A stretch of 45,209 nt of DNA from Ignavibacteria bacterium (GTDB lineage: Bacteria; Bacteroidota; Ignavibacteria; UBA10030; SZUA-254). Under the pieces are notes generated by a model. It was given only the letters and a program-made list of their open reading frames with translations, made no database searches and was not told the origin of the DNA. Of the stretch, positions 2,956 to 41,832 are shown in pieces (the stretch's first letter is position 1; the number at the start of each line of letters is the position of its first letter). Where the stretch lies: contig QJVY01000065.1 of the NCBI GenBank assembly GCA_003235555.1, positions 1 through 45,209 of the forward strand, read 5' to 3'. The position numbers and the translations under genes are program-made.

Positions 2956-3109
2956 CGCCAGCAAAGTACAAAATAAAACACCGTCCCGGAAAAATCCCGG
3001 GGCGGCGTACGATTTCCGGGCCCCCGTCTGGATAAGCGCGCCGGGGGAGGGTGAAACGCCGAATTTCGATTGCGTGTCGCTCCCGCCTTCCTCCCGACGT
3101 TTTCAACCC

Positions 3110-6317: not shown

Positions 6318-7931
6318 ATGAAACGCAGGGACTTCATCAGAAAATCCGTGCCGGTCGCCGTTCTTCCGCTCTTCCTCGGGGGGTTCAACTTCCGGGCGTA
6401 CGGCAGGTCGAAAGTGATCGAGTCGCTGATCGGTGCCGGGGAGCCGTCGGACAGGGTCCTCGTTCTCATCCAGCTGAACGGCGGGAGCGACGGACTGAAC
6501 ATGGTCATCCCGCGGGACCAGTACCCCGCGCTGATGAACGCCCGCGGGAACATCGCGATACCGGAAAACAAGGTCCTGCCGCTGACCGACGCCACCGGGC
6601 TCCATCCCGCGATGACCGGTCTGCACAACCTGTACAACGCCGGCAGGGTGAGCATCGTCCAGGGCGTCACCTACCCGAACCCCAACAAGTCTCATTTTCG
6701 CGGAACGGACATCTGGCTGACCGCCTCCGATTCGGACCAGACGCTCAACACGGGATGGATGGGCCGCTACCTCGACGGGGAGTACGACGGCTTCCCGGAG
6801 GGCTATCCCAACGAGGTGGCCCCCGACCCGCTGGCCATCCAGATCGGGTCGGTCGTTTCTACCGGGCTGCAGGGTCCCCTCGGGTCGATGGGGATGGCGA
6901 TCACCAGCCCCACGTCCTTCTACCAGCTTCTCACCGGCGGGGTCGATACCGCTCCCGACACCCCTGCCGGGCACGAGTTGACCTTCATCAGGCAGGTCGC
7001 ACAGCAAACCTCCGTCTACGCCGGTCAGATCAAGAACGCGGCGGCGAAGGTGACGTCGCAGTCCCCGCTCTACCCTACCGCCGGGACCAACAAACTCGCC
7101 GACCAGCTGAAGATCGTCTCGCAGCTGATCTCCGGCGGGCTCAGGACGCGCATCTATATCGTGAACCTCGGCGGGTTCGACACCCATTCAGGACAGGTGG
7201 ACGAGGTTCTTGGCACCGAGTACGGCGACCACGCCGACCTGCTGGGGAAACTGTCGGAGGCGATCCTCGCCTTCCAGGAGGACCTCCGGATGCACAAGGT
7301 CGACGACCGGGTGGTCGGCATGACGTTTTCCGAATTCGGCCGCCGGATCAAGTCCAACGCGAGTTTCGGCACCGACCACGGCACGGCGGCCCCGATGATC
7401 CTCTTCGGGAAGGCGGTCAACCACGGCATCGTCGGCGCGAACCCGGTCATTCCCGACCCGGTGTCGAGTGCCGACAACCTCCCCATGCAGTTCGATTTCC
7501 GGCAGGTCTATGCCTCGGTGCTGAGGCAGTGGTTCGGGGTTCCGCAGTCGGAACTCGACGCGGTGCTGCTCCGGAGTTTCGCGACGCTCCCGCTGGTGGG
7601 ACCCCTTCCCTCGGTGCGCCCGCCGACCGTCAACGAGGAGGGACCCGTCGCGGCCGGTGCCGGCGTCCCGGACAGGATGTCCCTCAACCAGAATTACCCG
7701 AACCCCTTCAACCCATCGACGACGATTTCGTTCACGTCCGCCGGCGGACCGGTGAACATCAGGGTCTACGACAGCATCGGGAGGGAGATCGTCACGCTCG
7801 TGGACGGCGTTCCGGGGGCCGGAACATTCAGCGTCGTCTTCGATGCCTCATCCCTTCCCGCGGGGGTCTATTACTGCAGGATGAGGAGCGGCGGGTTCCA
7901 GCAGGTCAGGACGATGAACCTCGTCAGGTAA
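6318..7931 (+). CDS. DUF1501 (sulfatase-fold) protein with a twin-arginine leader and a T9SS C-terminal sorting domain
   Basis: The N-terminus is 'MKRRDFIRKSVPVAVLPLFLGG' (an RRxFI Tat-like motif). DUF1501 blocks are 'GGSDGLNMVIP', 'GGFDTHS' and 'TDHGTAAP'. The last 82 aa, 'LNQNYPNPFNPSTTISF...IRVYDSIGREI...AGVYYCRM' (7683..7928), form a Por-secretion tail. The gene lies immediately downstream of the DUF1800 gene, which is the usual pairing. Confidence 0.9.
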   Translation: MKRRDFIRKSVPVAVLPLFLGGFNFRAYGRSKVIESLIGAGEPSDRVLVLIQLNGGSDGLNMVIPRDQYPALMNARGNIAIPENKVLPLTDATGLHPAMTGLHNLYNAGRVSIVQGVTYPNPNKSHFRGTDIWLTASDSDQTLNTGWMGRYLDGEYDGFPEGYPNEVAPDPLAIQIGSVVSTGLQGPLGSMGMAITSPTSFYQLLTGGVDTAPDTPAGHELTFIRQVAQQTSVYAGQIKNAAAKVTSQSPLYPTAGTNKLADQLKIVSQLISGGLRTRIYIVNLGGFDTHSGQVDEVLGTEYGDHADLLGKLSEAILAFQEDLRMHKVDDRVVGMTFSEFGRRIKSNASFGTDHGTAAPMILFGKAVNHGIVGANPVIPDPVSSADNLPMQFDFRQVYASVLRQWFGVPQSELDAVLLRSFATLPLVGPLPSVRPPTVNEEGPVAAGAGVPDRMSLNQNYPNPFNPSTTISFTSAGGPVNIRVYDSIGREIVTLVDGVPGAGTFSVVFDASSLPAGVYYCRMRSGGFQQVRTMNLVR

Positions 7932-8774: not shown

Positions 8775-9845
8775 ATGGACAACCTGACCCATTCACTGAC
8801 CGGTGTCATGGCGACGCGGGTCTTTCCCGGGGTGGGAAGCACTCACCCCGGGCCCACGGCCGGGGAAAAAACGAGGCCGGGCCGGACGCTCTTCTGGCTG
8901 ATGCTCGTGTCGGTGAACCTCCCCGACGCGGACATCGTCGCCAACCTCTTCACCGACCCTCTGACCGCAGTGCATTTCCACCGCGGGTTCACCCATTCGT
9001 TCTTGATGGCGCCCTTCGTCGCGCTTCTCCCGTCGGTGGTCGCCCTGCTCATCAACCGGAGCGCGCGCTTCCCGTGGTTGTGGATCGCCGCCACGACCGG
9101 TGTACTGGTGCATATTTTCGTGGACCTCATCACGCCGTACGGAACGCAGATATTTTTTCCGGTTGACGAAGCGAGGTACTCGCTCGACTGGATGTTCATC
9201 ATCGACCCGTGGTTCACCGGCGTCGTGGCACTCCTGCTGGTGGCCGGGAGGATCCTCGTAAAGCACCGCCGCGCGCTCGGATTCGTCACGTTGATCTTTA
9301 CCGTACTCTACATCGGCGCCGAGAGCCGACTGCATTCGCGGGCCCTCGACATTTTCAAACGCCAGCTGGAGAAATCCGGGACGCCCGCGCTGAACGTGGC
9401 GGTCCTCCCCCAGCCGTTCAGCATGACGGAATGGATGGGGCTCGCCTCGACCAAACAGGGGCCCGTCCGCCAGTACATACGCCTGTTCGATGAGGCGGGG
9501 GTGGTGGCCCCGGAGTTTTTCCCCGATCCGTCGGACCCGTACGCGGCGGCGGCGTTTGCGACGCCGTACGTTTCCCGGTACCTGGCATTCGCCCGTTTCC
9601 CGGCCGTCACCTCGGGAATGGAAAAGGGCGTGCACGCGGTGGAGATCCGGGACCTGCAGTTTTCCGTGGCGCCGGGTATCGCCCGCGCGTTCGGTATGGA
9701 GGCTGCCGAGCGGGACGTTCCCTTCGTTCTTCGACTGGAGTTCGCGGGCCCCGACAGCCTGGCGTCGGTGACGTTCAACGGCCGTCCGGTCCCCCCGGTT
9801 GAAGGTCTGGCCGGAAAACCGTACGTTACGGCATCCCCCCGATGA
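8775..9845 (+). CDS. Membrane-bound metal-dependent hydrolase (YdjM/DUF457 family) with a C-terminal extension
   Basis: 'MDNLTHSLTG' at the N-terminus, 'HRGFTHS' and 'H.F.DL.T.YGT' are YdjM/DUF457 motifs, and several TM helices are present. The stop overlaps the Crp/Fnr start as ATGA (9842-9845). Confidence 0.75.
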   Translation: MDNLTHSLTGVMATRVFPGVGSTHPGPTAGEKTRPGRTLFWLMLVSVNLPDADIVANLFTDPLTAVHFHRGFTHSFLMAPFVALLPSVVALLINRSARFPWLWIAATTGVLVHIFVDLITPYGTQIFFPVDEARYSLDWMFIIDPWFTGVVALLLVAGRILVKHRRALGFVTLIFTVLYIGAESRLHSRALDIFKRQLEKSGTPALNVAVLPQPFSMTEWMGLASTKQGPVRQYIRLFDEAGVVAPEFFPDPSDPYAAAAFATPYVSRYLAFARFPAVTSGMEKGVHAVEIRDLQFSVAPGIARAFGMEAAERDVPFVLRLEFAGPDSLASVTFNGRPVPPVEGLAGKPYVTASPR

Positions 9846-10552
9846 AAAACACGTTCGAGATACCGCACTGCGAGACCTGCCTCCCCAGGTTGAACTCCAT
9901 TTTCGGGGTGCTCTCCAGCGAAGAACTCAACAGGCTCGAGCTCCACAAGGGGTGTAACTTCCACAGGAGCGGGCAGGTGCTCTTTTACGAGGGCGACTAC
10001 CCTTCCGGGATCTATTGCATCAACCGCGGCAAGGTGAAACTCACCCGGACCGGGGAGGCGGGACGCGAACAGATCGTCCGGCTTGCCCGTGAAGGGGACT
10101 CGGTGGGGTACCGCGCTCTGGTGAGCGGCACGCCGTACCAACTCACGGCAACGGTGATCGAGGATGCCTCGATCTGCTTCATTCCCCGGCAGACCTTCAA
10201 CACGCTGATGGCGGACAACCCCTCACTGACCGGCACGATCATCCGCCAGCTCACTCAGGACCTCGCGAAGGCCGAGCAGAAGCAGGTCTCCCTGGCGCAG
10301 AAGCAGGTGAGGGAACGGCTCGCCGAGACGCTCCTCATGCTCCGGGAGTTCTACGGCTGTGAGGACGACCACAGGACCCTCCGCAGCCGGCTCTCGAGGG
10401 AGGACATCGCCAATTACGTCGGGACGGCGACAGAGACCGTCATTCGCCTCCTCTCGGAATTTTCAAAAGAGGGATTGATCGTCCTCGAGGGGAAGAAAAT
10501 CCGTATCACCGACCAGAAAGGACTCTGCGAAACGGCACGGATGCCCGAGTAG
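9842..10552 (+). CDS. Crp/Fnr family transcriptional regulator
   Basis: A cNMP-binding-like beta-roll ('LF.EGD...G+Y.I..G.VKL', 'GREQIVRLA..GD..G') is followed by a C-terminal HTH ('SREDIANYVGTATETVIRLLSEF'). The N-terminus carries 'HCETC' and further Cys residues (C38, C59), which may form an FNR-like redox-sensing site; this is inference. Confidence 0.9.
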   Translation: MKNTFEIPHCETCLPRLNSIFGVLSSEELNRLELHKGCNFHRSGQVLFYEGDYPSGIYCINRGKVKLTRTGEAGREQIVRLAREGDSVGYRALVSGTPYQLTATVIEDASICFIPRQTFNTLMADNPSLTGTIIRQLTQDLAKAEQKQVSLAQKQVRERLAETLLMLREFYGCEDDHRTLRSRLSREDIANYVGTATETVIRLLSEFSKEGLIVLEGKKIRITDQKGLCETARMPE

Positions 10553-10669
10553 GCTGATCCGTCCCGGTCCACCCCCCCCGCCTCACCAGGCCTCCCCTCC
10601 GCCTACCCTCCCATCCCTTTCCCAGAGTTGGCTATTTCAGGCTGTTTCACCTTCCGGACGCCTGAATAC

Positions 10670-10683
10670 ATGACAAAAATCAT
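10670..10683 (+). promoter_or_regulatory. Candidate CRP/FNR-type operator (ATGAC-AAAA-ATCAT; core TGA-N6-TCA)
   Basis: Read directly from the sequence, in the intergenic region downstream of the Crp/Fnr gene. Its centre lies about 68 nt upstream of the ATG at 10745 that opens the cytochrome block. It resembles the TTGAT-N4-ATCAA consensus. This is a single site and is not statistically tested. Confidence 0.35.
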
Positions 10684-10744
10684 TTTTCAACCTTTTCCGC
10701 GTCATACCGGATATGCCCCCTTGTTGTGTATTTTTCATACAGGG

Positions 10745-11617
10745 ATGTGGCGTAAACTGACAAATATTAACCGCGTACTCGTACCGGTAGACCTGACAGA
10801 CGATTCGCTCTGTGCCGTCGAAGCTGCCCTGACCTACTCAAAGGAAAGGAAAGCACAGATCTACCTGATCCATGTCATATCCCCCCATGACGGGGGGACG
10901 GGTTCACCGGAGCCCGGGTCCGCCTCCCCCCACGGTTCCCATCACCACGACGGGGGCGGAAGGCAGTCTTCGATATTGGAGGAATTCTTCCTCAAAAAAA
11001 TCAAACCGCAATCCAACGTGGCCTGCATCCTGAGGGCGGGCACCCCGGCGCGCGAAATCCTCAGGTTCGCCCGGGAGGAGAGTATCGACCTGATCGTCCT
11101 CCCCCTGGCCCCCGCCGCCAGTGCCGGACGGTCCGGCATGAAGGGCATCGCGGACATCGTCATTCGAAACGCGACCGTACCTGTCGTCGTCGTCAAGCCG
11201 GAATCCGCGGCGAGGCAGGTCCCGGGTCTTCATTTTCAGACAAGGAAAAATCCGGCAGGACAGACGGAGGTGAAAAACATCATGAAATACGACGACAAGT
11301 ATCTCCACGAAATCCGGCAGAATGTCTGCTCGAAGTGCATAGACCGGACGGCATCGGGCCTCTGCGTGGCCTCCACGTTCGACGCCTGCGCGATCAACAG
11401 GTACCTTCCGGAGATCATCGACATCGTCCTGGCCGGCCCGGCTGACGATTACGACGACACGGTCGAGCGGCTCCGGGCCCGGGTATGTGCAGCCTGCGAA
11501 CAGCAGTCTCCGGACGGGAGGTGCGACATGAGGGACGACGTGGAGTGTGCCCTCGACAGGTATTTCCCCCTGGTCATCGAAGCGATCCGCGAGGCGGCCA
11601 GGAACAAGAACACCTGA
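10745..11617 (+). CDS. Universal stress protein (UspA) domain fused in frame to a duplicated Cys-rich module of unknown function
   Basis: USP fold motifs are 'NRVLVPVDLTDDS', 'IYLIHVI', 'IDLIVL' and 'VPVVVVK'. The C-terminal about 110 aa contain two copies of C-x2-C-x8-C-x7-C-A-[IL]-[ND]-R-Y-[LF]-P. The start is uncertain: TTG 10628, ATG 10670 and ATG 10745 are all in frame. An internal GGAGGTG sequence with an ATG at 11282 precedes the Cys-rich part. Confidence 0.7.
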   Translation: MWRKLTNINRVLVPVDLTDDSLCAVEAALTYSKERKAQIYLIHVISPHDGGTGSPEPGSASPHGSHHHDGGGRQSSILEEFFLKKIKPQSNVACILRAGTPAREILRFAREESIDLIVLPLAPAASAGRSGMKGIADIVIRNATVPVVVVKPESAARQVPGLHFQTRKNPAGQTEVKNIMKYDDKYLHEIRQNVCSKCIDRTASGLCVASTFDACAINRYLPEIIDIVLAGPADDYDDTVERLRARVCAACEQQSPDGRCDMRDDVECALDRYFPLVIEAIREAARNKNT

Positions 11618-11623
11618 GGTGCC

Positions 11624-13924
11624 ATGAGTTCGACAGTAACTCACTCTGAACATCCGATGCCCGAACGGGAAGGGATCTCGAAATTCTACATCGCCCTCCT
11701 CGTGACGGGACTCATCGTCGGGGCGACGTTCCTGCTGGGGATCGGCCTCCTCTTTTCCGGAGGGGCCGTCGCACAGACCAGGGACGACTGCCTGATGTGC
11801 CACTCGGACGAAGGGCTCAGCGCCGAGCGGGACGGTGAAGAAGTATCCCAGTACGTCGACGCAACGGTCCTCGACAAATCCCCCCACGGCAAACTGGTCT
11901 GCGTCGCCTGCCATACCCGCTTCAACCCGGAGGAGATGCCGCACAGGGCGAACATCCGCCCGGTAAACTGCCTCACCTGCCACAAGGGCGCCGAGCTGAA
12001 ACATGGCTTCCACCCGCAGCTTGCCGCGGCGATCGCCTCCGGTGAGGATCCCGACGTCGGCTGCAAGGACTGCCACGGGAGGCACGACGTGGTCTCACCG
12101 AAGGAACCGGACTCGCCCTTCAACCGGAAAAACATCTCGGCCGGGTGCGGCCAGTGCCACAGCGATGTCGCCGAAGAGTTCGACCTCTCGGCACACGGTC
12201 TGGCCCATTCGGCCGACGTCAAGGGAGCGCCGGACTGCCTCATCTGCCACGACAGGAAAATCACCGTAACCACGAACCCCGGCAACGGCGTGGGCCTCAA
12301 GCTGGCCCAGGAGCGGCTCTGCCTCAGCTGCCACATGGACAACCCCGACGTCCGAGACAGGACATCCCCTTCGGCCGGTTTCATCGCGGCCTACGAGCAG
12401 AGCGTGCACGGTTCGGCGCTCACCAACGGGAACGCGAACGCTCCGAACTGCGTCGACTGCCACGGAAGCCACCAGATGGCCAAGGGTTTCGACCCGTCGT
12501 CGAAGGTCAGCAAGATGAAGATCGCCGAGACGTGTTCGAAATGTCACGGGGATATCGCCGGGGTGTTCAACGGGAGCGTTCACGGGAAGGCGGTCACCGC
12601 CGGGGTCGAGGACGCTCCCACCTGCACCGACTGCCACGGAGAACACACGATCCTGAAACACAACGACCCGCGCTCGCCGGTGGCCAAGCAGAACCTGTCG
12701 GCGCAGGTCTGCTCCCCCTGCCACAGTTCGGTGGCCCTCTCCACCAAGTACGGCATCGCGAACGACCGATTCAAAACATTCACCGACAGTTACCACGGCC
12801 TCGCGATCCGGGGCGGATCGGTGGAGGTGGCCAACTGCGCCAGCTGCCACGGGTCGCACAACATCAAGCCCTCGTCCGATTCCACGTCGACCATCTCGAA
12901 GGCGAACCTGGTGAAGACCTGCGGACGCTGCCACCCCGGGGCCAACCAGCGGTTTACCGTGGGCGCGGTGCATGTCAACGAAAAATCCCGCACCGAGGAA
13001 CCCCTCCTCTACTGGATCGCGACGCTGTACATCCTGCTGATCGTGGTCACGATCGGCGGCATGCTGTTCCATAACGTGATCGACTTCGTGAAAAAGTCCA
13101 GGCGGAAACTCATGATCCGCAGGGGCCTCATCCCGCATCCGCACGCGGGACCCGGGATGTATGTCAGGATGACCGGGGAGGAACGCTTCCAGCACGCCGC
13201 CCTGCTGATCAGCTTCACGACGCTCGTGGTGACCGGGTTCATGCTCCGCTTCCCCGAGGTCTGGTGGGTGCGCTGGATCCGCGACCTGGGCGGCGGGGTG
13301 TTCGAGGCGCGGAGCCTGACGCACCGCATCGCCGGCGTGGTGATGCTCGCAGCGAGCCTCTACCATGTCTACTACGTCTCCTTCACGAAACGGGGACGGG
13401 AACTGATCCTCGACATGCTCCCCCGCATGCAGGACGTCCGGGACGCGCTGGCGATGGTGAAATACAACCTGGGCATGCGAAACGACCGCCCGCTCTTCGA
13501 CCGCTTTTCGTATATCGAGAAGGCCGAGTACTGGGCGCTCATCTGGGGGACGATGGTCATGGGGGCCACCGGGCTGATCATGTGGTTCGACAACACCTTC
13601 ATCGGGCTGTTGACGAAGCTCGGGTACGACGTGGCCAGGAGCATTCACTATTACGAGGCGTGGCTGGCCACACTCGCCATTATCGTCTGGCACTTCTATT
13701 TCGTGATCTTCAACCCCGACGTGTACCCGCTGAATGTGGCGTTCTGGAAGGGTACCCTCACCGAGGAGGAAATGGAGGAGGACCATCCGCTGGAACTCCG
13801 CAAAATACAAAACGCCGGAACGAAGAAAGACATCGATTCGTCGGATAAAGGGCCCGAACGCCTGGACAAAGGCCCGGACCCGGATCGCGACAGAAACGGC
13901 AACGGACACGGGGGGAAAGCGTGA
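11624..13924 (+). CDS. 13-haem c-type cytochrome fused to a di-haem cytochrome b membrane domain (FdnI/HydC-like); CbcL-like architecture
   Basis: An N-terminal signal anchor is followed by 13 CxxCH motifs (CLMCH, CVACH, CLTCH, CKDCH, CGQCH, CLICH, CLSCH, CVDCH, CSKCH, CTDCH, CSPCH, CASCH, CGRCH). About 5 TM helices follow, with conserved His pairs ('HRIAGVVMLAASLYH', 13 residues apart; 'HYYEAWLATLAIIVWH', 14 apart). Confidence 0.9.
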   Translation: MSSTVTHSEHPMPEREGISKFYIALLVTGLIVGATFLLGIGLLFSGGAVAQTRDDCLMCHSDEGLSAERDGEEVSQYVDATVLDKSPHGKLVCVACHTRFNPEEMPHRANIRPVNCLTCHKGAELKHGFHPQLAAAIASGEDPDVGCKDCHGRHDVVSPKEPDSPFNRKNISAGCGQCHSDVAEEFDLSAHGLAHSADVKGAPDCLICHDRKITVTTNPGNGVGLKLAQERLCLSCHMDNPDVRDRTSPSAGFIAAYEQSVHGSALTNGNANAPNCVDCHGSHQMAKGFDPSSKVSKMKIAETCSKCHGDIAGVFNGSVHGKAVTAGVEDAPTCTDCHGEHTILKHNDPRSPVAKQNLSAQVCSPCHSSVALSTKYGIANDRFKTFTDSYHGLAIRGGSVEVANCASCHGSHNIKPSSDSTSTISKANLVKTCGRCHPGANQRFTVGAVHVNEKSRTEEPLLYWIATLYILLIVVTIGGMLFHNVIDFVKKSRRKLMIRRGLIPHPHAGPGMYVRMTGEERFQHAALLISFTTLVVTGFMLRFPEVWWVRWIRDLGGGVFEARSLTHRIAGVVMLAASLYHVYYVSFTKRGRELILDMLPRMQDVRDALAMVKYNLGMRNDRPLFDRFSYIEKAEYWALIWGTMVMGATGLIMWFDNTFIGLLTKLGYDVARSIHYYEAWLATLAIIVWHFYFVIFNPDVYPLNVAFWKGTLTEEEMEEDHPLELRKIQNAGTKKDIDSSDKGPERLDKGPDPDRDRNGNGHGGKA

Positions 13925-16017
13925 CGATCCGCAATCACCTTCACGCCGCCGCCGGCCGGTGTGCGGTCGCGGCGCTTCTCATCCTGACGTTCACGCAGGT
14001 GGGGTTGGTCATCGCGCAGGAGGACGCCGACTGCCTTTCCTGCCATGAGGACCGGTCCATGGAGGGAACCCGCGACGGGCGGACGATTTCGGTCTTCGTC
14101 AACGGGAAGGTGTTCGCCGGATCCATCCATGCCGCAAACGGGTGCATCTCCTGTCACGCGGACCTGGCGGAAGCGGAGTTTCCCCATGCTGAAGAGGTCG
14201 CACCGGTGGAGTGCGGGACCTGCCACTCGGACGAACAGGAAGAGGAATCGAAATCGCTCCACGGCCGCGCGGCCGAGAGGGGCGACCGGCTCGCGCCGGT
14301 CTGCAAGGACTGCCACGGGACGCACGGCATCCTTCCCAAATCGGACCACAATTCCCCCATCTCGGCGCTGAAGGTCCCTTTCCTCTGCGGGAAGTGTCAC
14401 CAGGAAGGTTCCACGGTGATGACCCAGCGGACCATCCATCAGGACAACATCCTCGAGAACTTCTCCGAGAGCATACACGGCGAGGGGCTGTTGCGCAAGG
14501 GTCTCGTGGTCGCCCCCAACTGCGCGTCGTGCCACACCGGCCACTCGATCCTCCCGCACACCGACCCCGCCTCGTCGATCGCGCGGACCAACATCGCCTC
14601 GACCTGCACGCAGTGCCACGGGGAGATCGAGGAGGTCCACCGCAAGGTGATCAAGGGCGAGCTCTGGGAAAAGGAAGCGCACGTCCTCCCGGCGTGCGTG
14701 GACTGCCACCAGCCGCACAAGATCCGCAAAGTTTTCTACTCGCAGGGGATGGCCGACGCCGACTGCATGCGGTGCCACGACAAGCCCGATCTGAAAGCTT
14801 CCTCCGACGGGAGGTCGCTCGCCGTCGCCGCCGCGGCGCTGGCGCGGTCGATGCACGCGAAAATCTCCTGCAGCCAGTGTCACTCGGAGGTTAACGCCTC
14901 CAAGGTGCGCCCCTGCGAAACCATCGTCCGGAAGGTGGACTGCTCTTCGTGCCATGCCGAGATCAACCTGGAATTCTCGGCGAGCCTCCACGGGACGCGT
15001 GCCATGGAGCAGGACCCGAACGCCCCGACCTGCAAGGAGTGCCACGGTGACCACGAGATCCTCGGGAAACGGAACCCGCTCTCGAAAACCTTCCCGACGA
15101 ATGTTCCGGACCTCTGCGCGCGCTGCCACCGTGAGGGGCAGAAGGCCGCCGTGCTCTACACGGGTATCGAGCATGAGATCATCGAACGGTATACCGAATC
15201 GATACACGGCAAGGGGCTGATGAAAAGCGGCCTGACCGTGACGGCCATGTGCACGAGCTGCCACACCTCGCACAACGTCCGTCCGCGCAGCGACAGCCTC
15301 TCCAGCGTCAACAGGGACAACCTGCCGGCGACCTGCGGCACCTGCCACCACGGGATCGAGGACCAGTTCGAGAAGAGCGTCCATTCGAAGCGGGTCTCGA
15401 AAAGCGACAAACCGCTCCCCGTGTGCGACGATTGCCACACGGCGCACAAGATCCGCCGGGCCGACGAGGAGGGGTTCAAGCTGACGATCATGCAGCAATG
15501 CGGCCGCTGCCACGAGGCTATCGCGAAGACCTACTTCGACACCTACCACGGAAAGGTCTCGCAGCTCGGGTATACCAAGACAGCCAAATGCTACGACTGC
15601 CACGGAGCCCACGATATCCTTCCGGTTGCCGACCCGAACTCCCACCTGAGCCGCGAGAACGTCGTGGGGACGTGCCGGAAGTGCCACGAGGGGGCGACCC
15701 GGATGTTCGCCGGCTACCTCACCCACGCCACCCACCACGACCCGGAGAAGTACCCCCTCCTCTTCTGGACGTTCTGGGGAATGACCTCGCTCCTGATCGG
15801 CACGTTCATCTTCGGGGGGATCCACACCCTGCTCTGGCTGCCGCGTGCGTTCCGGTACAGGAAATTGCTGAAGGAGACCCACGATAAAATCCGCAACGGG
15901 CGGTTAAGCGGGGCGCCGGAGGGGGGCGCGGACCCAGGTGAGAGGGACCCCGGGTCCCCCGATGCGGGTCAGCCCGAAGGGAACCGTGAGAAGAACGACG
16001 GTGGCGATAATGGCTGA
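13921..16017 (+). CDS. 19-haem c-type cytochrome with an N-terminal signal peptide and a single C-terminal TM helix
   Basis: The GTG start overlaps the upstream stop (GTGA). I counted 19 CxxCH motifs by eye. The C-terminal helix is 'YPLLFWTFWGMTSLLIGTFIFGGIHTLLWL', followed by a Gly/Asp/Pro-rich tail. Confidence 0.9.
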   Translation: MTIRNHLHAAAGRCAVAALLILTFTQVGLVIAQEDADCLSCHEDRSMEGTRDGRTISVFVNGKVFAGSIHAANGCISCHADLAEAEFPHAEEVAPVECGTCHSDEQEEESKSLHGRAAERGDRLAPVCKDCHGTHGILPKSDHNSPISALKVPFLCGKCHQEGSTVMTQRTIHQDNILENFSESIHGEGLLRKGLVVAPNCASCHTGHSILPHTDPASSIARTNIASTCTQCHGEIEEVHRKVIKGELWEKEAHVLPACVDCHQPHKIRKVFYSQGMADADCMRCHDKPDLKASSDGRSLAVAAAALARSMHAKISCSQCHSEVNASKVRPCETIVRKVDCSSCHAEINLEFSASLHGTRAMEQDPNAPTCKECHGDHEILGKRNPLSKTFPTNVPDLCARCHREGQKAAVLYTGIEHEIIERYTESIHGKGLMKSGLTVTAMCTSCHTSHNVRPRSDSLSSVNRDNLPATCGTCHHGIEDQFEKSVHSKRVSKSDKPLPVCDDCHTAHKIRRADEEGFKLTIMQQCGRCHEAIAKTYFDTYHGKVSQLGYTKTAKCYDCHGAHDILPVADPNSHLSRENVVGTCRKCHEGATRMFAGYLTHATHHDPEKYPLLFWTFWGMTSLLIGTFIFGGIHTLLWLPRAFRYRKLLKETHDKIRNGRLSGAPEGGADPGERDPGSPDAGQPEGNREKNDGGDNG

Positions 16018-16897
16018 GAAATTACCGGTGGAGGCGAATGAATTACGGCAGCTCCTCCAGTCGCCGGTGGGGGAGAAACAGTTTCTCCGCTTCAGCCGGC
16101 TGAACAGGGCCCTGCACATCATCCTGATCGTGAGTTTCCTGAGTCTTGCGCTGACCGGACTCACGCTGAAGTTTTCCTATACGGGGTGGGCCGTGGTGCT
16201 CTCCCATGTTCTGGGGGGGTTCGAACTCACAGGTTACCTGCACCGTTTCGCCGCCGTGCTGATGTTTTTGATTTTCTTCATACACCTCGGCGACGTCGTC
16301 CGCATGAAGCGTTCGGAACACCGCTCCTGGGGTTCGGTCATTTTCGGCCCCGACTCCATGATGTTCAACAAAAAAGACCTGTCGGATTTCATCGGTTCGG
16401 TGAAATGGTTCGTGGGGAAGGGCCCCAGGCCGCAGTTCGGCCGCTGGACGTACTGGGAGAAGTTCGACTACTTTGCGGTCTTCTGGGGGGTGGCGGTCAT
16501 CGGTTCCACGGGGCTGATGCTCTGGTTCTCGGAGTTCTTCACGCGGTTCCTCCCCGGCTGGCTGATCAACGTGGCGACGATCATCCACAGCGACGAAGCG
16601 CTTCTCGCGGTCGGGTTCATCTTCACGGTTCATTTCTTCAACACCCACCTCCGCCCCGAAAAATTCCCGATGGACATCGTGATCTTCACCGGACGGATGG
16701 ACGTCGACGAGTTCATGCTCGACAAGCCCGGCGAATACGAGGAGCTGAAGAAATCCGGAAAGCTCGATGAAAAACTGGTTGAACCCTACCAGCCGATCGT
16801 CATCCGGGCCGTGAAGGCCTTCGGGTGGACGGCGCTCACGATCGGGTTCAGCGTCGTGGTCTGGATCATCTACGCCATGCTTTTCGCATACCGGTGA
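16010..16897 (+). CDS. Di-haem cytochrome b membrane subunit (FdnI/HydC/PhsC-like), partner of the 19-haem cytochrome
   Basis: The ATG at 16010 overlaps the upstream stop by 8 nt (ATGGCTGA). The protein is clearly homologous to the C-terminal domain of the 11624 gene: 'RF.R..R..H', '[16 protein letters not shown]', '[21 protein letters not shown]' and '[20 protein letters not shown]'. Confidence 0.85.
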
Positions 16898-16984
16898 CCT
16901 CCCCGAAGATGGAGCGGCCGGCAAGTTTGAGAATTAGCCCGTAATCATTACATTGATCACTGTTTCTTATCATTGTCCCTTTTC

Positions 16985-18481
16985 ATGAAAAGAATCTTTC
17001 CACCGTCATTCTACAACATCATCACGCTCATCGGGACGGCGGTTGCGGGTGTCACCTTCGGGCTGATCCTCTTCCTGATCCTGATCGAATCGATGGCCGC
17101 CCAGGAGAAGCCCTACATGGGCATCGTGACGTTCGTGATTCTCCCGGTGTTTTTGTTGCTGGGCATCGCTGTCATGATCTTCGGGATCATGCGCGAACAC
17201 CACCGCGAGAAATTGGGGAAACCCCACTCCCTCCGTCTTCCGCAGATCGACCTCAACAACCCCAAGCACCGGACCGCGTTCGTGTCCTTCGCGGTCGGCG
17301 GCGTTTTGTTGCTGCTCTTCTCGGCCTTTGGCAGCTTCAAGGCCTACGAGTACACCGACTCCGACCAGTTCTGCGGGGAGACCTGCCACTCGGTCATGGA
17401 GCCGGAATACACCGCTTACCAGTTCTCCCCCCACGCGAAAGTGGGCTGCGTCCAGTGCCACATCGGATCCGGGGCCGACTGGTTCGTCCGGGCGAAAATA
17501 TCCGGCAGTTACCAGCTCTACGCCGTTGCGTTCAACAAGTATCCCAAACCGATCCCGACCCCGATCGAGAACCTCCGTCCGGCCCAGGAGACCTGTGAAC
17601 AGTGCCACTGGCCGAAGCATTTCTTCAGCGAGAAGCAGAGGGTCAACACCTACTTCCTCGCCGACGACGACAACACGAAGTGGAGCATCAACCTGCTGAT
17701 GAAGATCGGCGGGGGCAACATCGAGGCGGGACCCACCTCCGGCATCCACTGGCACATGAACATCGCCCACGAGGTGACGTACAAGGCGCTGGACAGGGAG
17801 CGCCAGGTGATCCCGTGGGTGCGCTCACGGACCCCCGAGGGCGAGGAAACGATCTACAGGAGCACCGAGGTCGAAGTCACGGAAGACTCGCTCGCGAACG
17901 CGTTCACGCGCCGCATGGACTGCATCGACTGCCACAACCGGCCGACGCACATCTACCACCCACCCGCCCCGTCGATAAACCACCTCATGGCCCTCGGGTG
18001 GATCAGTCCCGCCCTTCCCGGCATCAAGGCCGTCAGCCTGGAGGCGCTCGAGGGCGAGTACTCCACGAAGCCGGGCGCGCTCGACACCATCGGCGCGACC
18101 ATCGAGGGATACTACCGGGACAACCACCCGGAAATCCTTTCGACCATGCGCACAGCCGTCGACAGCGCCATCGCCGAGGTCCGGAAGATCTACAGCCGGA
18201 ATTACTTCCCCGAGATGCGGACAGACTGGAAAAAATTTCCCGACAACCTGGGTCACCTGTACTCGCCGGGATGTTTCCGCTGCCACGACGGGAAGCACGT
18301 GACGGACCAGGGGAAGGTACTGTCGAAGGATTGCAACACCTGCCACACCATCCTGGCGCAGAAGTTCGAAAACGATTCACTCAGGATATCGCTCGGAGGT
18401 ATCCAGTACCGGCACCCCGTGGACATCGGAGGGGCGTGGATGGAAATGAACTGCAGCGAATGTCATTCAGCAACCCAGTAG
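16985..18481 (+). CDS. Inner-membrane 7-haem NapC/NirT-like cytochrome c (ImcH-like architecture)
   Basis: There are three N-terminal TM helices. The first haem site, 'FCGETCHSVMEPEY', is NapC/NirT-like but is C-x3-CH. Six canonical CxxCH motifs follow (CVQCH, CEQCH, CIDCH, CFRCH, CNTCH, CSECH). I prefer the ATG at 16985 (MKRIFPP) over the TTG at 16973. Confidence 0.85.
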   Translation: MKRIFPPSFYNIITLIGTAVAGVTFGLILFLILIESMAAQEKPYMGIVTFVILPVFLLLGIAVMIFGIMREHHREKLGKPHSLRLPQIDLNNPKHRTAFVSFAVGGVLLLLFSAFGSFKAYEYTDSDQFCGETCHSVMEPEYTAYQFSPHAKVGCVQCHIGSGADWFVRAKISGSYQLYAVAFNKYPKPIPTPIENLRPAQETCEQCHWPKHFFSEKQRVNTYFLADDDNTKWSINLLMKIGGGNIEAGPTSGIHWHMNIAHEVTYKALDRERQVIPWVRSRTPEGEETIYRSTEVEVTEDSLANAFTRRMDCIDCHNRPTHIYHPPAPSINHLMALGWISPALPGIKAVSLEALEGEYSTKPGALDTIGATIEGYYRDNHPEILSTMRTAVDSAIAEVRKIYSRNYFPEMRTDWKKFPDNLGHLYSPGCFRCHDGKHVTDQGKVLSKDCNTCHTILAQKFENDSLRISLGGIQYRHPVDIGGAWMEMNCSECHSATQ

Positions 18482-18493
18482 CCCAAAACAGAC

Positions 18494-18949
18494 ATGGAAA
18501 ACAGAACGGAACAACCCGCACAGCCCCGCAAGAGGGAACTGCTCATGTGGATTCTCTCGGGGGGCCTGTTCGGCATGGCCGCATCGATACTCTACCCGCT
18601 CTTCGCGTACCTGAAACCGCCCAGGCTCGGCGAGGTGGAAACGTCATCGGTCAAGGCGGGCAAGGTCGACGATTTCCAGGTCGACAGCGGGCAAATCATC
18701 AAATTCGGGACGAAACCCGTGCTGCTGGTCCGGACTCCCAACGATGAATTCCGGGCGTTCTCGGCCGTCTGCACGCACCTCGACTGTACCGTACAGTACC
18801 GCAGGGAGAAAGGGGTGATCTGGTGTGCGTGCCACAACGGAACGTACGACCTGACCGGGAGGAACATCGGCGGACCTCCTCCGAGGCCGCTCGATGAATT
18901 TCGCGTCGTGATCCAGGGAGAGGAGGTTCTCATTTCGAAAAAAGCATGA
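18494..18949 (+). CDS. Rieske [2Fe-2S] subunit of a cytochrome bc/b6f-type complex
   Basis: An N-terminal TM anchor is followed by Rieske box I 'CTHLDCTV' and box II 'CACHNGTYD'. The stop overlaps the start of the cytochrome b gene (ATGA). Confidence 0.9.
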
Positions 18950-20025
18950 AAAAAAGACTGAACATCCTGTACGAGTGGGTCAACGACCGGGTTCATCTCG
19001 AGGACCTCGTCGAATTCCTGGGAAAAAAGTACGTGCCGGTCCACAGCCATTCCGTCTGGTATTACTTCGGCGGGGTTTCCCTCTTCCTGTTCATCATCCA
19101 GGTGGTCACCGGCATCCTCCTCCTGCTGTACTATAAGGGGAGCGAAGAACTGGCCTTCGAGAGCATCAAGTTCATCATGTCCAAGGTGGCGTTCGGCTGG
19201 CTCATCAGGTCGGTCCACAGCTGGGCGGCGAACCTGTTCGTCCTCGCGGCGATGATCCACATGTTCAGCGTCTACTTCACGAAGGCGTACCGGAAACCCC
19301 GCGAAATCACCTGGCTCACCGGCATGCTCATGTTCTTCCTGGTGCTCGGGTTCGGTTTCAGCGGGTACCTCCTTCCCTGGAACGAACTCGCCTTCTTCGC
19401 GACGAAGGTGGGCACGGACATCGCCGGCGTCATCCCGGTCATCGGGAAACCCATCATGGTCTTCCTCCGAGGCGGAGAGGACGTCACGGGAGCGACGCTG
19501 TCCCGGTTCTTCGGTTTCCACGTCGCCGTGTTCCCCGGGATATTCACGGTCCTGCTGGGCATCCACCTCATCCTCGTGCAGCGCCAGGGGATGAGTGAAC
19601 CCCTCCACATCGAACGCGGGGGGGGCAGCGGCGGCAAAACGATGCCCTTCTTCCCGAATTTTCTCCTGCGGGACCTTCTCCTGTGGCTCATCGTGCTCAA
19701 CCTCCTCGCCATCCTCGCGGTGTTCTTCCCCTGGGAACTGGGACAAAAAGCCGACGCGTTCGCCCCGGCCCCCGCCGGAATCAAACCGGAATGGTATTTC
19801 ATGTTCATGTTTCAGACCCTGAAATACATCCCGGCGAAATTATGGATCATCGACGGGGAAGTTTTTGGAATCATGCTTTTCAGCATCGCGGGACTCTTGT
19901 GGACCCTCGTTCCGTTCTGGGACGCCAAGAGTGCACGCGGAGAAAAAAGCCGCCGGATCATTTACATCGGCATCTTCGTCGTCATGTACATCATTGCCCT
20001 GACAATTCTCGGATGGCTCTCATGA
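18946..20025 (+). CDS. Cytochrome b (fused b6 plus subunit IV type)
   Basis: 'VWYYFGG', the helix-B pair '[15 protein letters not shown]' (13 residues between the His), the helix-D pair '[16 protein letters not shown]' (14 between, which is b6-type), '[13 protein letters not shown]', and the Qo-site 'KPEWYF' motif. Confidence 0.95.
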
Positions 20026-21515
20026 ATGGTCGATATCGCGGTTTTCTCACAACGTTCGTCCTCATCTTCCTGTTGCACTGTTCCCCGGCGTTACGTGCTC
20101 AGGACGGGTGCCTGACGTGCCATCAAACCATGGAGGATCCGCGGGCGGCTCTCTTCCTGAAGGACGTCCACAAGGCGAAGGGGTTTTCCTGCGCGGACTG
20201 CCACGGCGGAAACCGGAATGCGGAGGATATGGAGACGGCCATGGATCCCGACGCCGGTTTCAGGGGGGTCCCGTCCGGGGACGAGATCACGGAGATGTGT
20301 TCGACCTGCCACTCGGACGGATCGGCCATGGTCAAGACCTATAATTCCATCCTCCCGTGGGGACAGAAGGCCCTCCTGGAGGCCAGCGTGCACAATAAGC
20401 TCGCCTCGAACGGGAAGGAACGGATCGTCAACTGCGCGACGTGTCACAACGCGCACGGGATCCTCCCGGTGGAAAATCCGGCTTCCCCGGTATATCCGCT
20501 CAACGTGACGAAAACCTGCGGGAAGTGCCACTCCGATGCCTCGTACATGCGGATCTACAATCCCACCATCGCTGTGGACCAGGTCGACAAGTACCGGACG
20601 AGCGTTCACGGGAAGAAAAACGCATCCGGGGACCGCAAGGTGGCCGAATGTGCGAGCTGCCACGGCAGTCATGAGATCCGTTCGGCGAAAGACGTCAAGT
20701 CCAGGGTGTACCCCACGAACGTGCCCGAAACGTGTTCGTCCTGTCACTCGAATCCGGAATACATGGCGGGGTACGGCATCGAGTCGGACCAGTTCGAAAA
20801 ATATTCGAAGAGCGTCCACGGGAAAGCCCTCCTCGAGAAGAACGACATCGGCGCTCCGGCGTGCAACGACTGTCACGGGAACCACGCCGCCACCCCGCCG
20901 GGGGTCGCGTCCGTGTCCAACGTCTGCGGGACGTGTCACGCCCTGAACGCGGATCTCTTCGCCCAGAGCCCCCACAAGGAGGCGTTCGACGAAGCCGACC
21001 TCCCGGAATGCGAAACGTGCCACGGGAATCACGAGATCGTCTCCGCCTCGGAAAAACTTCTCGGCGTCTCCGATGAAGCGGTGTGCAGCTGGTGTCACGG
21101 CGGGGATCCGGAGTCGAAAGGCTATAAGACCGCGGCCTCGATGAGGTTGCTCGCCGACAGCATGGACAGGGCCGAACGCCGGGCAATCGGACTCGTCGAG
21201 GACGCGGAACAGAAAGGCATGGAGATCTCCGACGCGAAGTTCAAACTCCGGGATGCACGGCAGGCCATTCTCCAGTCACGCACCATGGTGCATTCCTTCG
21301 ACGAAGAGAGGTTTCGGGAGGTGATTACCGCCGGTATCGCCGTTACGGCCGTCGCGGGCAGCGAGGCAAACGAGGCGATCGATGAATATTATTTCCGGCG
21401 ATGGGGACTCGTCTTCGCGACGTCGATGCTGATCCTCCTCTCGATTTCACTCTACGTCTACATCCGGAAACTGGAAAAAAGGAAAGAGACCGGAACCCGG
21501 AATTCCGCCGGCTGA
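20022..21515 (+). CDS. 11-haem c-type cytochrome with a C-terminal TM anchor, translationally coupled to the Rieske/cytochrome b genes
   Basis: The ATG at 20022 overlaps the cytochrome b stop (ATGA). Signal peptide [27 protein letters not shown]. There are 11 CxxCH motifs (CLTCH, CADCH, CSTCH, CATCH, CGKCH, CASCH, CSSCH, CNDCH, CGTCH, CETCH, CSWCH). A predicted helical segment and the TM helix '[21 protein letters not shown]' follow. Confidence 0.9.
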
Positions 21516-21571
21516 CGGGGAGACGGGTCGGATGGTCGATGACCGGGATTCTTAATTTTGAGAAACCCGGA

Positions 21572-21589
21572 TATGACGTATCTCATATC
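21572..21589 (+). promoter_or_regulatory. Candidate CRP/FNR-type operator: inverted repeat ATATGA-cgtatc-TCATAT (core TGA-N6-TCA)
   Basis: Read directly from the AT-richer gap between the two cytochrome operons. It shares the ATGAC-N4-nTCAT layout with the site at 10670-10683. Confidence 0.3.
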
Positions 21590-21765
21590 TGAAAATATCA
21601 TGCATCACCCGGACCCTGCCCGGTTGTAAAATCCCCGCTGATACCACTGGAGGCCCATTCCCGGATTCCCTCAATTCCCTCCCGAACTGGCACCAAATTT
21701 GATAGACCTGTACCGGTCTCTTTCCAGATAGTCCCGCCATCAATCATGATGATGAGGAGAGTCAG

Positions 21766-21996
21766 ATGAAGAAGTTCATTTTCATCGCGCAGGTGGTCAG
21801 CGTCTCCCTGATATGGCTCTTCGTCGTCGTCATAACACTCTGGATACTCAACCTTATCTCCCTTTCCATCGATCTCAACGACATGCCCGGTGCCTCCGTA
21901 GGCATCAGCATCGTCGCTATTCCCATCTTCATCACCCTGGCCTCGATCCTCACCTACGTCTTTATCGGATTGCAAAGGGGTAAAAACAAAGGTTAA
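21766..21996 (+). CDS. Small hypothetical two-TM membrane protein
   Basis: 76-aa ORF preceded by GAGGAGAG. The product is strongly hydrophobic (IAQVVSVSLIWLFVVVITLWILNL; ISIVAIPIFITLASILTYVFI). Its composition is AT-richer than its neighbours. I do not recognise the family, so it could be spurious. Confidence 0.45.
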   Translation: MKKFIFIAQVVSVSLIWLFVVVITLWILNLISLSIDLNDMPGASVGISIVAIPIFITLASILTYVFIGLQRGKNKG

Positions 21997-22018
21997 CCAA
22001 CCTCCGAGGAGGAACACG

Positions 22019-23182
22019 ATGGTACGTACACTATTCTGGATGCTCTGCATCATTGTTCCCGGAACACTCTCTGCCCAGGAAATCCGGCTGCCGCAGAACC
22101 CGCTGGAAGGGAGAATCGTCTTCGAGGAGAAGGGTTGCATCGAATGTCACCAGCTCGGGGGATACGGCGGGACCGCGGGACCATCCCTGAGCAAGGACCT
22201 CTACTTCGGGACCGTCCTGGAGTTGGCGACGATCATCTGGAACCATACGCCCCAGATGAACCGCAAATTCCGCCAGATGCGGGTCTCCCGTCCGGAATTC
22301 ACCGAGAAGGAGATGACCGACCTGTTCGGGTTCCTCTACTACCTCAGGTACCTGGGAGAACCCGGCGGGGTGGCGAGGGGAAAGAAGTTGCTCGAATCCA
22401 AGGGCTGCAGGCAGTGCCATTCCCTGGGAGGATCGGGTGGTGGGGTCGGAGTCCCGCTCGATTCGATCACGGTGACCGCGTCCCCCCTCTACATCGTGCA
22501 GTCGATGTGGAACCACGTCCCGGCGATGAAGGAGCAGATCTCGAAGACAAACCTGGTGTACCCCGAACTCTCCGGTCAGGACATCGCCGACATCACGGCC
22601 TACATCCGCCAGGCGACGATGAACACGACGGTCGTGGGGGGCGCGGCACCCGGCGATCCCCACCTGGGAAGGGAAATCTTCGCCTCGAAAGGCTGCAACG
22701 ACTGCCACATGACCGGGGAAGGAAAGAGGAAAATCATCGCCCCCAACCTCTCGCGGATCGAGTTGCGGGAAAGCGTCACCGAAACCGCGAGCCTGATGTG
22801 GAACCACGGCCCGATGATGCTGCAACACATGGAGGACAGGTCGATCGACTGGCCCCGATTCGAGGGGAACGAGATGGCGGACCTGATCGCCTACCTCTAC
22901 TTCCTGGATTTCGAGGACAAACCCGGGGACCCGAAAAAGGGAGAGGGTGTGTTCGCGGCGCGCGGGTGTGGCAGCTGCCACGGGAAAAACGGATCCGGGA
23001 AGGGACCCGACCTGGCGACGATCACGCACTTCGATTCCCCCATCAGGATGATCCAGCTGATGTGGAACCACGCCCAGAGCATGGAGGACATGCTCATCAC
23101 GCAGAACAAGCACTGGCCGGAACTGACCGGTGACGAGATGCGCAACCTCTACGCCTACATCAGGGAAGCAACGAAGAAATAA
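22019..23182 (+). CDS. Tetra-domain class I c-type cytochrome (four tandem monohaem repeats)
   Basis: A strong RBS (GAGGAGG) lies 6 nt upstream, and a signal peptide is present. Four repeats of about 90 aa each carry 'KGC..CH' (CIECH, CRQCH, CNDCH, CGSCH). Each is followed about 30 aa later by 'WNH.P/Q.M', which probably supplies the Met axial ligand. Confidence 0.9.
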   Translation: MVRTLFWMLCIIVPGTLSAQEIRLPQNPLEGRIVFEEKGCIECHQLGGYGGTAGPSLSKDLYFGTVLELATIIWNHTPQMNRKFRQMRVSRPEFTEKEMTDLFGFLYYLRYLGEPGGVARGKKLLESKGCRQCHSLGGSGGGVGVPLDSITVTASPLYIVQSMWNHVPAMKEQISKTNLVYPELSGQDIADITAYIRQATMNTTVVGGAAPGDPHLGREIFASKGCNDCHMTGEGKRKIIAPNLSRIELRESVTETASLMWNHGPMMLQHMEDRSIDWPRFEGNEMADLIAYLYFLDFEDKPGDPKKGEGVFAARGCGSCHGKNGSGKGPDLATITHFDSPIRMIQLMWNHAQSMEDMLITQNKHWPELTGDEMRNLYAYIREATKK

Positions 23183-23211
23183 CCTTCCGACACAACCATA
23201 CCCGGCCGTCG

Positions 23212-23739
23212 ATGAAAGAGTTGAAAACAGGGTCGATCGCGAGCGTTGTCGTCCGATTTGCGTATGCGGGGTGCCTGATCCTTTCCGGGGCATGCGCGAT
23301 CTCTTCGGGGGACGAGCCGGACCAACCCATTGCCTACAATCACAAACTGCATATCGAGACCGTCGGACTCGAGTGCGCGGAGTGCCACCGCTACGTGGAA
23401 ACGTCCGCCGCCGCCACGTTACCACCCCTCGAAGTGTGCCGCTCCTGCCACGAGTCCGAACCGCTCACCGAGTCTCCGGAGGAAACCGTCCTCCTGAAAT
23501 ATGTTGCCGACGGGACCGAGATCCCGTGGAAGAGGATCTATCACGTCCCGGACCACGTCTATTTTTCACATCGCCGGCATGTCGTCCTGGGGGAACTCGA
23601 CTGCGGTCTGTGCCACGGGGTCATGCAGGAGCAGACGGCGCCGGTCCGGTCGGCGTTTCTCGAGGTGAAGATGGAGAACTGCATGGACTGCCACCGGGAA
23701 CACAAGGTCACCAATGATTGTCTCTCCTGTCATCGTTGA
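23212..23739 (+). CDS. Pentahaem c-type cytochrome (ActA/QrcA-like position)
   Basis: An N-terminal hydrophobic anchor is followed by 5 CxxCH motifs (CAECH, CRSCH, CGLCH, CMDCH, CLSCH). The gene sits directly upstream of the molybdopterin-family / FeS / NrfD trio. Confidence 0.85.
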   Translation: MKELKTGSIASVVVRFAYAGCLILSGACAISSGDEPDQPIAYNHKLHIETVGLECAECHRYVETSAAATLPPLEVCRSCHESEPLTESPEETVLLKYVADGTEIPWKRIYHVPDHVYFSHRRHVVLGELDCGLCHGVMQEQTAPVRSAFLEVKMENCMDCHREHKVTNDCLSCHR

Positions 23740-23753
23740 ACGAGGGGTGAAGA

Positions 23754-26210: not shown

Positions 26211-26227
26211 ATCAGAGGGACCCGCCC

Positions 26228-36224: not shown

Positions 36225-38480
<2,256 letters not shown>

Positions 38481-41638: not shown

Positions 41639-41832
41639 GGTGAGGAGCCCGGATGTCGTGTCAGGTATGCACGGGAAAGTAGAAACTTCCGGCGAAATAT
41701 TCAACGAACGCGCCCACGCGAGCCCGCTCCACGAATCGGCCGGCAGAGGCTTGTCCGCATGTGCGGTCCTGCGTGGATTTCACCCGCCCTTTATTTATAT
41801 TAAAGACCGATTTCACTAATCTCCGGGATTCA

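Follow-up and report, generated by a model that had tools for sequence, protein, structure and literature searches.

CbcL is a cytochrome needed for reducing extracellular acceptors below about -0.1 V. To our knowledge, there is no structure of any CbcL-type protein and its gating is unexplained. Together with ImcH and CbcBA, CbcL is a proposed gatekeeper through which Geobacter adjusts its respiration to the redox potential of acceptors outside the cell. The three act independently as parallel exits from the quinone pool (Joshi et al. 2021). The CbcL/MtrH/MtoC family and its variable haem number are already published; its members are 416-1034 amino acids long with 3-23 CxxCH motifs, share 28.6-100% identity and occur in 15 phyla including Bacteroidetes and Ignavibacteriae (Zhong and Shi 2018, PMC6295460). 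Their haem domain is followed by six transmembrane (TM) helices, or by five or four in a few members (PMC6295460). In CbcBA, the c subunit CbcA has seven haems and a His-bearing C-terminal TM helix, and the separate dihaem b subunit CbcB has four TM helices, three conserved His and no sequence homology to the CbcL b domain (Joshi et al. 2021). Four consecutive forward-strand genes, here called A to D, are related to these systems and lie in a 45,209 nucleotide (nt) stretch of DNA from an Ignavibacteria bacterium (assembly GCA_003235555.1, contig QJVY01000065.1), referred to below as the window. A encodes a 13-haem cytochrome c fused to a cytochrome b, B a 19-haem cytochrome c, C a stand-alone cytochrome b and D an ImcH-like cytochrome. 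It is probable that B and C together form a split enzyme of the CbcL clade, that A is a distant fused relative, and that all three belong with D to a cassette shared across phyla which would oxidise menaquinol.

Gene B (13921..16017) is an open reading frame (ORF) with 19 CxxCH motifs that encodes a predicted periplasmic cytochrome c of 698 amino acids. It starts with GTG and overlaps the stop codon of gene A by 4 nt. Its signal peptide (13921-14019) is followed by the haem domain (14032-15687), a C-terminal TM helix at residues ~611-637 (15751-15831) which carries the invariant His635, and a cytoplasmic tail (15868-16014) which is not conserved and is exceeded in length in only four of the 60 split loci described below. 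Gene C (16010..16897) begins with an ATG at 16010 and encodes an FdnI-type cytochrome b of 295 amino acids. The four-helix haem-binding core of C (16088-16654) contains the invariant His36, 78, 92, 193, 208 and 213, and is followed by an extra C-terminal TM helix (residues 270-294, 16817-16891) which is equivalent to TM helix 6 of CbcL. This helix has no counterpart in A and was missing from a first-pass annotation of the locus that had been made from the sequence alone. The two genes overlap by 8 nt (16010..16017, ATGGCTGA), a stretch which holds both the start codon of C and the TGA stop of B, ending at 16017. The membrane helices of B and C add up to six, one from B and five from C, where the TM helices of A, B and C were called solely from hydropathy and an AlphaFold model (of C).

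The AlphaFold model of C has a mean predicted local distance difference test score (pLDDT) of 82, and its sole significant fold match in the PDB is FdnI (1kqf_C) with a target-normalised TM-score of 0.75 (E 3.6e-5). By sequence the match of C to 1kqf_C has an E value of 0.0019, and His18, 57, 155 and 169 of FdnI align with His36, 78, 193 and 208 of C, which shows the ligand pattern of FdnI/HydC-type proteins (PF01292) with one His in helix 1, one in helix 2 and two in helix 4. PF01292 and TIGR01583 also match C, but under their curated cut-offs. Like B and C, FdnH and FdnI of E. coli formate dehydrogenase-N (1KQF) meet exactly at the seam where the partner supplies one C-terminal TM helix, and the four haem-ligand His align. 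The partner of FdnI is however an Fe-S protein and not a multihaem cytochrome, and FdnI reduces quinone. Unlike B and C, it lacks the sixth helix and the two extra conserved His, and the sequence identity is ~19-20%.

The CbcL sequence used for comparison, P0438, is a stand-in from Trichlorobacter (Geobacteraceae), an orthologue of 616 amino acids with nine CxxCH motifs and six TM helices, in agreement with CbcL as published and with fragments of the G. sulfurreducens sequence. It was reached from an alignment in a paper supplement read by optical character recognition (OCR), a search with which gave a single database fragment of 136 amino acids that led to a Geobacteraceae-like contig (L005); the membrane domain was rebuilt by hand from this contig and used in a renewed search and cluster look-up. 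P0438 aligns to an artificial fusion of B (residues 1-645) and C with 40% identity over 623 amino acids (419 bits, E 2e-139), whereas its alignment to A has 28% identity over 569 amino acids (239 bits). The alignment to B and C spans from haem 11 of B through the B helix to the last helix of C, and haems 1-9 of P0438 match haems 11-19 of B one to one. Relative to CbcL, the haem chain of B thus appears to have been lengthened at its N-terminal side from 9 to 19 haems. Neighbour-joining trees of the b domains (215-274 columns, rooted on E. coli HyaC, FdnI included, support taken from bipartitions in 200 bootstraps) group the C family, a Krumholzibacteria protein and the Geobacter-type CbcL in one clade in 194/200 bootstraps, with A outside; the core clade of A has 186/200. 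Because of both this clade and the much higher alignment score, B and C are best placed as a split member of the CbcL clade, and A as a more distant paralogue.

As in CbcL (GSU0274) and its Geobacteraceae orthologues, the last nine haems of B, the B helix and all of C follow one another collinearly, and the extra C-terminal helix is present in both. Unlike CbcL, B and C are two genes, split in the cytoplasmic loop past the first TM helix, and B has ten extra N-terminal haems (19 versus nine). C also differs from Geobacter-type CbcL in having the membrane His92, the equivalent position of which is Ala in 37/51 CbcL sequences, and B and C adjoin the paralogue A and an ImcH-like gene, which are found at separate loci in G. 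sulfurreducens. In the Geobacteraceae-like long contig L005 (4600-8524), frameshifts that are probably due to long-read assembly noise divide cbcL into five or more ORF pieces, and the gene is directly followed by an imcH-like gene, unlike the separate loci of G. sulfurreducens. Two further proteins, P0346 and P0350, have b domains of the CbcL clade which are preceded by N-terminal cytoplasmic repeats instead of a TM helix or haem c domain; P0350 has a precomputed match to PF14332.

The first-pass annotation had assigned the roles the other way around, proposing a tandem duplication, taken here as recent and local, which was followed by fission (or else a fusion), with the fused gene A standing for the CbcL type and the split B/C for the CbcBA type. 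A and B/C are indeed adjacent on the same strand with homologous b domains and haem domains, and the layout of B and C, with His635 in the C-terminal helix of the c subunit and a separate ORF for the b subunit, resembles the description of CbcBA (GSU0593-0594). The alignment scores given above nevertheless reverse the assignment, and the b domain of C is 55% identical to that of CbcL and 72% to that of its Acidobacteriota homologues but only 32% to that of A, which in turn is 27% identical to CbcL. CbcB orthology of C is disfavoured because CbcB is reported to be non-homologous to the very domain with which C shares 55% identity; as far as CbcB can be compared by its published description, it also differs from C in having four TM helices and three conserved His, whereas C has five TM helices and, of its six invariant His, five lie in these helices. 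B and C further differ from CbcBA in the number of haems in the c subunit (19 versus seven) and in having a nearby regulator of the Crp/Fnr type rather than an adjacent sigma-54-dependent BccR-type regulator. The likeness of B and C to CbcBA would thus be one of architecture and not of family membership. Of the proposed history, paralogy is supported, and fission is the better reading for B and C; a local duplication does not stand, since A and B+C each have closer relatives in other phyla, and since several phyla have homologues of A next to those of B/C in differing orders, which places the paralogy before this lineage. Taken as a whole, the proposal of a recent duplication with these assignments is very improbable.

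B and C are best described as a split variant of the CbcL/MtrH/MtoC family. A periplasmic domain with multiple CxxCH motifs is found in both A (13) and B (19), and a HydC/FdnI-like dihaem b domain in both A and C; A combines the two on a single polypeptide and B/C does not. The published survey required both domains on one polypeptide (PMC6295460), and split forms such as B and C would consequently have been left uncounted. Gene A and the fused 19-haem relatives of B and C fall inside the published envelope of the family; five TM helices after the haem domain, as in A, are allowed by the family range and B and C have six.

A frameshift arising from sequencing or assembly, with one 19-haem fused protein as the true gene product, had been raised in the first-pass annotation as an explanation for the split. 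The frame of C is open for ~34 codons 5' of its ATG so that a single +1 indel would join B and C, and fused versions are known in 23 loci. A scan with C of one genome per species gave matches in at least 586 genomes, of which the best 80 loci were kept; with two loci obtained earlier and the window itself, this gave a survey of 83 loci based on stop-to-stop ORFs. B and C are split in 60 of these, the window included, and form a single ORF of 920-1000 amino acids in the other 23. Among the split loci the junction offset is -8 nt in 17 (window included), -11 in seven and -4 in seven, with short gaps elsewhere; the nearest relative, an Ignavibacteria metagenome-assembled genome (L006) with 85% identity, has the identical -8 overlap. 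The relative frames of B and C are distributed over 39, 13 and eight of the 60 split loci so that all three are used, and the eight loci in which both genes share a frame are separated by an in-frame stop, which is impossible via frameshift error. C has relatives in the thousands, of which the 120 best-scoring ones are without exception stand-alone proteins with a length of 258-335 amino acids. Because independent loci are split with varied junctions in all three relative frames, the split appears to be genuine and an assembly error has a negligible probability. Programmed frameshifting or readthrough giving a fused B-C protein is rejected, as the relative frame differs among genomes.

Fused forms are found in the Geobacter-type CbcL and the Krumholzibacteria relative, both just outside the 19-haem family, and within it in the early-branching clades of Holophagales, Thermoanaerobaculaceae, Firestonebacteria, Planctomycetota, Gemmatimonadota and a minor group of Ignavibacteriales. 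Split forms are found in most members of the Ignavibacteria, Terriglobales and Eisenbacteria. Since fused genes characterise both the neighbouring groups and the early branches of the 19-haem family, fission appears to be the derived state, and because two fused loci (L013 and L031) sit among split ones, there would have been at least two fission events, or one with reversions. In the fused forms, the His of the first helix is separated from the His of the next by ~39 residues around a variable stretch of ~15 residues. The break between B and C falls in this variable cytoplasmic loop and both new ends are lengthened in the window. FdnH and FdnI of 1KQF are divided at the same seam. CbcA/CbcB and HydA/HydC are likewise divided there, and it is known that b and c modules have repeatedly been joined and separated (Joshi et al. 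2021).

Gene A (11624..13924) encodes a predicted fused cytochrome of 766 amino acids, as judged from the ORF listing, CxxCH counts, Pfam and TM calls. It consists of an N-terminal signal anchor (11684-11773), a haem domain with 13 CxxCH motifs (11789-12934), a single TM helix at residues ~462-486 with His483 (13007-13081), a four-helix b domain of the FdnI type (13166-13723) and a low-complexity tail which is not conserved (13787-13921). PF01292 (Ni_hydr_CYTB) matches residues 520-698 with an E value of 2.7e-14, and the FdnI model TIGR01583 also matches. Five TM helices follow the haem domain, the last (sixth) helix of the CbcL type being absent. The layout described in the first-pass annotation therefore holds for all three genes: A is one polypeptide with 13 haems, a TM helix and a four-helix b domain (motif counts, PF01292), B has 19 haems and ends in the equivalent TM helix, C is separate and starts 8 nt before the stop of B, and the break lies directly behind the first TM helix. 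The low-complexity tails rich in Gly, Asp, Pro and Asn that it pointed out in A and B are present in the window and missing from the L001 and L003 orthologues, so that they are lineage-specific.

The b domains of A and C, which the first-pass annotation had aligned by eye and proposed for a proper comparison, share 31% identity over 241 amino acids in a pairwise alignment (E 7e-33). The single TM helix of A aligns with the C-terminal helix of B, and the haem domains of A and B are also homologous. The search with the membrane domain of A gave 2260 matches among representatives of 50%-identity clusters, most of which are fused with 2-19 haems. Because the top 150 of these all score at least 179 bits (E <1e-47) compared to 110 bits for C against A, C is not the nearest relative of A. 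A and B+C are therefore two anciently diverged paralogues and not recent tandem duplicates, and the occurrence of A and B/C homologues side by side in several phyla in different gene orders likewise argues for an old conserved pairing.

Several relatives of A stand out in their own right. P0433 is a 13-haem A-like fused protein from Candidatus Methylomirabilis oxyfera (CBE67886.1). P0126 and P0130 consist of a b domain only (275-302 amino acids) and cluster with the core clade of A in 139/200 bootstraps, a grouping from which the A lineage may also include split forms. P0244 and P0265 are inverted fusions with an N-terminal b domain followed by eight or three haem c motifs, the opposite order to CbcL and A. 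No named CbcL was found among the nine-haem representatives that were looked up within the relatives of A.

The two paralogues share their candidate haem ligands. The spacings H-x13-H in the second and H-x14-H in the fourth b-domain helix, recorded in the first-pass annotation, are found in both A and C, and these pairs are invariant in both paralogues in three genomes. The same holds for a single His in b-domain helix 1 and another in the lone helix before it. All of these are invariant in 83/83 C-family loci and conserved in 83-95 of 95 A-family representatives. In B and C together, six membrane His (His635 of B and His36, 78, 92, 193 and 208 of C) are invariant in 83/83 loci, as is His213 of C which lies just past the last core helix. 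The A-family equivalents of His635 and His92 are kept in 83/95 and 87/95 representatives, respectively. By predicted topology, four of the six membrane His are near the cytoplasmic face. FdnI has four membrane His and Geobacter-type CbcL five, compared to six in B+C. It is a speculative and decidedly doubtful idea that the membrane domains go beyond dihaem proteins, with a third b haem or a redox-switched alternative ligation that would gate the potential window of each module, the cassette then being a self-contained set of exits from the quinone pool that are graded by potential and shared horizontally. If this were true, the natural fused and split forms would provide a ready test of the part played by the anchoring helix in gating.

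Gene D (16973..18481) lies directly 3' of C both in the window and in most Ignavibacteria loci and encodes a predicted inner-membrane cytochrome of 502 amino acids, according to TM calls, haem motifs and a match to PF03264. The ImcH family is defined by three N-terminal TM helices, a CX3CH motif with 5-9 CX2CH motifs and NapC/NirT-like similarity (PMC6295460). With three N-terminal TM helices, one CX3CH (CGETCH) and six CX2CH motifs and similarity to NapC/NirT (PF03264, E 5.6e-10), D appears to belong to this family as published, and it is 38% identical to the imcH-like gene beside cbcL in L005.

Homologues of A and D accompany B and C in many of the 83 loci. At distances of up to 10 kb from the C homologue, 57/83 loci have an A-like gene, 58/83 a D-like (ImcH-like) gene and 26/83 a Rieske/cytochrome b pair; these are lower bounds since many contigs are truncated. 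The haem chains of different length described in the first-pass annotation, 13 in A versus 19 in B, are kept across the family, as 49/57 A-like proteins have 13 haems and 74/83 B-like proteins have 19; the D-like proteins have seven haem motifs (CxxCH and CX3CH) in 37 loci and six in 20. Ignavibacteria loci run A-B-C-D and those of Acidobacteriota D-B-C-A', and the commonest order is A-B-C-D-Rieske, found in 19 split loci with the Rieske/cytochrome b genes directly after D. A, B, C and D thus appear to be a cassette which is common to Ignavibacteria, Acidobacteriota and Gemmatimonadota and in which the haem counts are held at 13, 19 and 6-7. One locus labelled Hyphomicrobiales, L014 (JBLMXB010000103.1), carries a cassette which groups with the Eisenbacteria/Acidobacteriota versions and is probably mis-binned.

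The strict co-occurrence of these genes, with A-like genes in 57, D-like genes in 58 and B/C in all 83 of the 83 loci, together with the haem counts fixed across phyla and the overlapping or abutting genes which suggest co-translation, would also be expected if A, B, C and perhaps D were subunits of one supercomplex and not parallel oxidoreductases. Such a complex is improbable, as the gene order differs by phylum, many loci on long contigs carry B/C with neither A nor D nearby (for example L028, L050 and L065), and the Geobacter homologues act independently (Joshi et al. 2021).

The cassette is embedded in a longer series of genes on the forward strand. Upstream of A are genes for a Crp/Fnr-type regulator (9842-10552) and a protein with a universal stress protein domain (10628-11617), to which a regulatory role may be ascribed by inference only. 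Downstream of D, a Rieske protein (18494-18949), a cytochrome b (18946-20025) and an 11-haem cytochrome c (~20013-21515) are encoded by overlapping or abutting genes and would be a fourth quinol-oxidising module. These are followed by two small c-type cytochromes (four and five CxxCH) and a PsrABC-like set consisting of a molybdopterin oxidoreductase, a 4Fe-4S protein and an NrfD-type membrane subunit (21902-28254). The haem c island from 11624 to 23739 contains 59 haem-binding motifs in all. A scan for promoters and terminators gave nothing above chance. Further away, the window encodes a protein with lipase maturation factor (LMF1) domains and a DCC1-like thiol-disulfide oxidoreductase domain (1105-2964, reverse strand), a KatG-type catalase-peroxidase (36225-38408, reverse strand), and a menaquinone biosynthesis protein (Pfam VitK2_biosynth; 41761-42678, forward strand). 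Sorting tails for type IX secretion are encoded at 6318-7931, 29391-30869 and 34832-36112 (-) and assign the bacterium to the Bacteroidota/Ignavibacteria group.

By analogy with the described systems, the cassette would function in the oxidation of menaquinol, likely for periplasmic or extracellular electron transfer, and the menaquinone biosynthesis gene in the window counts in support of menaquinol as the donor. It is proposed that B is exported and that its His-bearing C-terminal helix docks on C, thereby rebuilding the six-helix membrane domain of CbcL, while the overlapping stop codon of B and start codon of C would couple the translation of both parts. Menaquinol would be oxidised at the b domain of each module, from where electrons would cross the membrane via two b haems and pass along the periplasmic wire of haem c to acceptors in the periplasm or outer membrane. 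In that case, A, B+C and D may serve as parallel exits from the quinone pool that differ in reach, redox window and energy yield.

The same proteins could in principle run in reverse, with electrons from Fe(II), a cathode or a syntrophic partner reducing menaquinone, as proposed for MtoC-type homologues. The published family holds homologues from Fe(II)-oxidising bacteria and is argued to be bidirectional (PMC6295460), and FdnI, the closest solved structure to C, is a quinone reductase. ImcH-type proteins such as D, on the other hand, are found only in Fe(III) reducers and are implicated only in quinol oxidation (PMC6295460), and cultured Ignavibacteria relatives are reported to reduce Fe(III) and arsenate. 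Neither of these points against reverse flow is decisive, and reverse flow has some chance of being right, although a small one. Menaquinol oxidation by a split CbcL-clade enzyme and its neighbours is the preferred reading, against which a number of points have to be set. The presence of Fe(II)-oxidiser homologues in the published family (PMC6295460) bears on the direction of flow, A-like proteins exist in organisms with no known extracellular electron transfer such as Ca. Methylomirabilis, and in the window no gene stood out clearly as an outer-membrane porin-cytochrome. The assignment of P0438 to CbcL is based on its taxon, its architecture and error-laden OCR fragments of the G. sulfurreducens protein in place of the reference sequence. 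The trees are neighbour-joining trees on 215-274 columns in which the deep order within the 19-haem family is not settled, and the nesting of L013 and L031 leaves the number of fission events uncertain. Finally, the physical association of B with C is one that we infer, and the function of every member of the cassette is read from sequence and by analogy.

The combination of A, B/C and an ImcH-like gene is not described in the published family survey (PMC6295460). In the literature searched, coverage of which is incomplete, there was no prior description of a split CbcL-clade enzyme or of the strict conservation of 19 and 13 haems, and none was found of a cross-phylum cassette with an ImcH-like gene, including in work on Ignavibacteria, Acidobacteria and Melioribacter. 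A highly conserved 19-haem enzyme of the CbcL clade is widely distributed among Ignavibacteria, Acidobacteriota, Gemmatimonadota and further phyla of soil and sediment, and searches which demand a single fused polypeptide will overlook its split form. As one orthologous clade exists both as one gene and as two, broken at the same seam as in formate dehydrogenase and hydrogenase, it provides a natural experiment on the role of the anchoring helix and its invariant His in haem b binding and quinol oxidation. As a genomic marker, the conserved pairing of this enzyme with its 13-haem paralogue and with an ImcH-like protein could point to a potential for extracellular electron transfer outside Desulfuromonadia.

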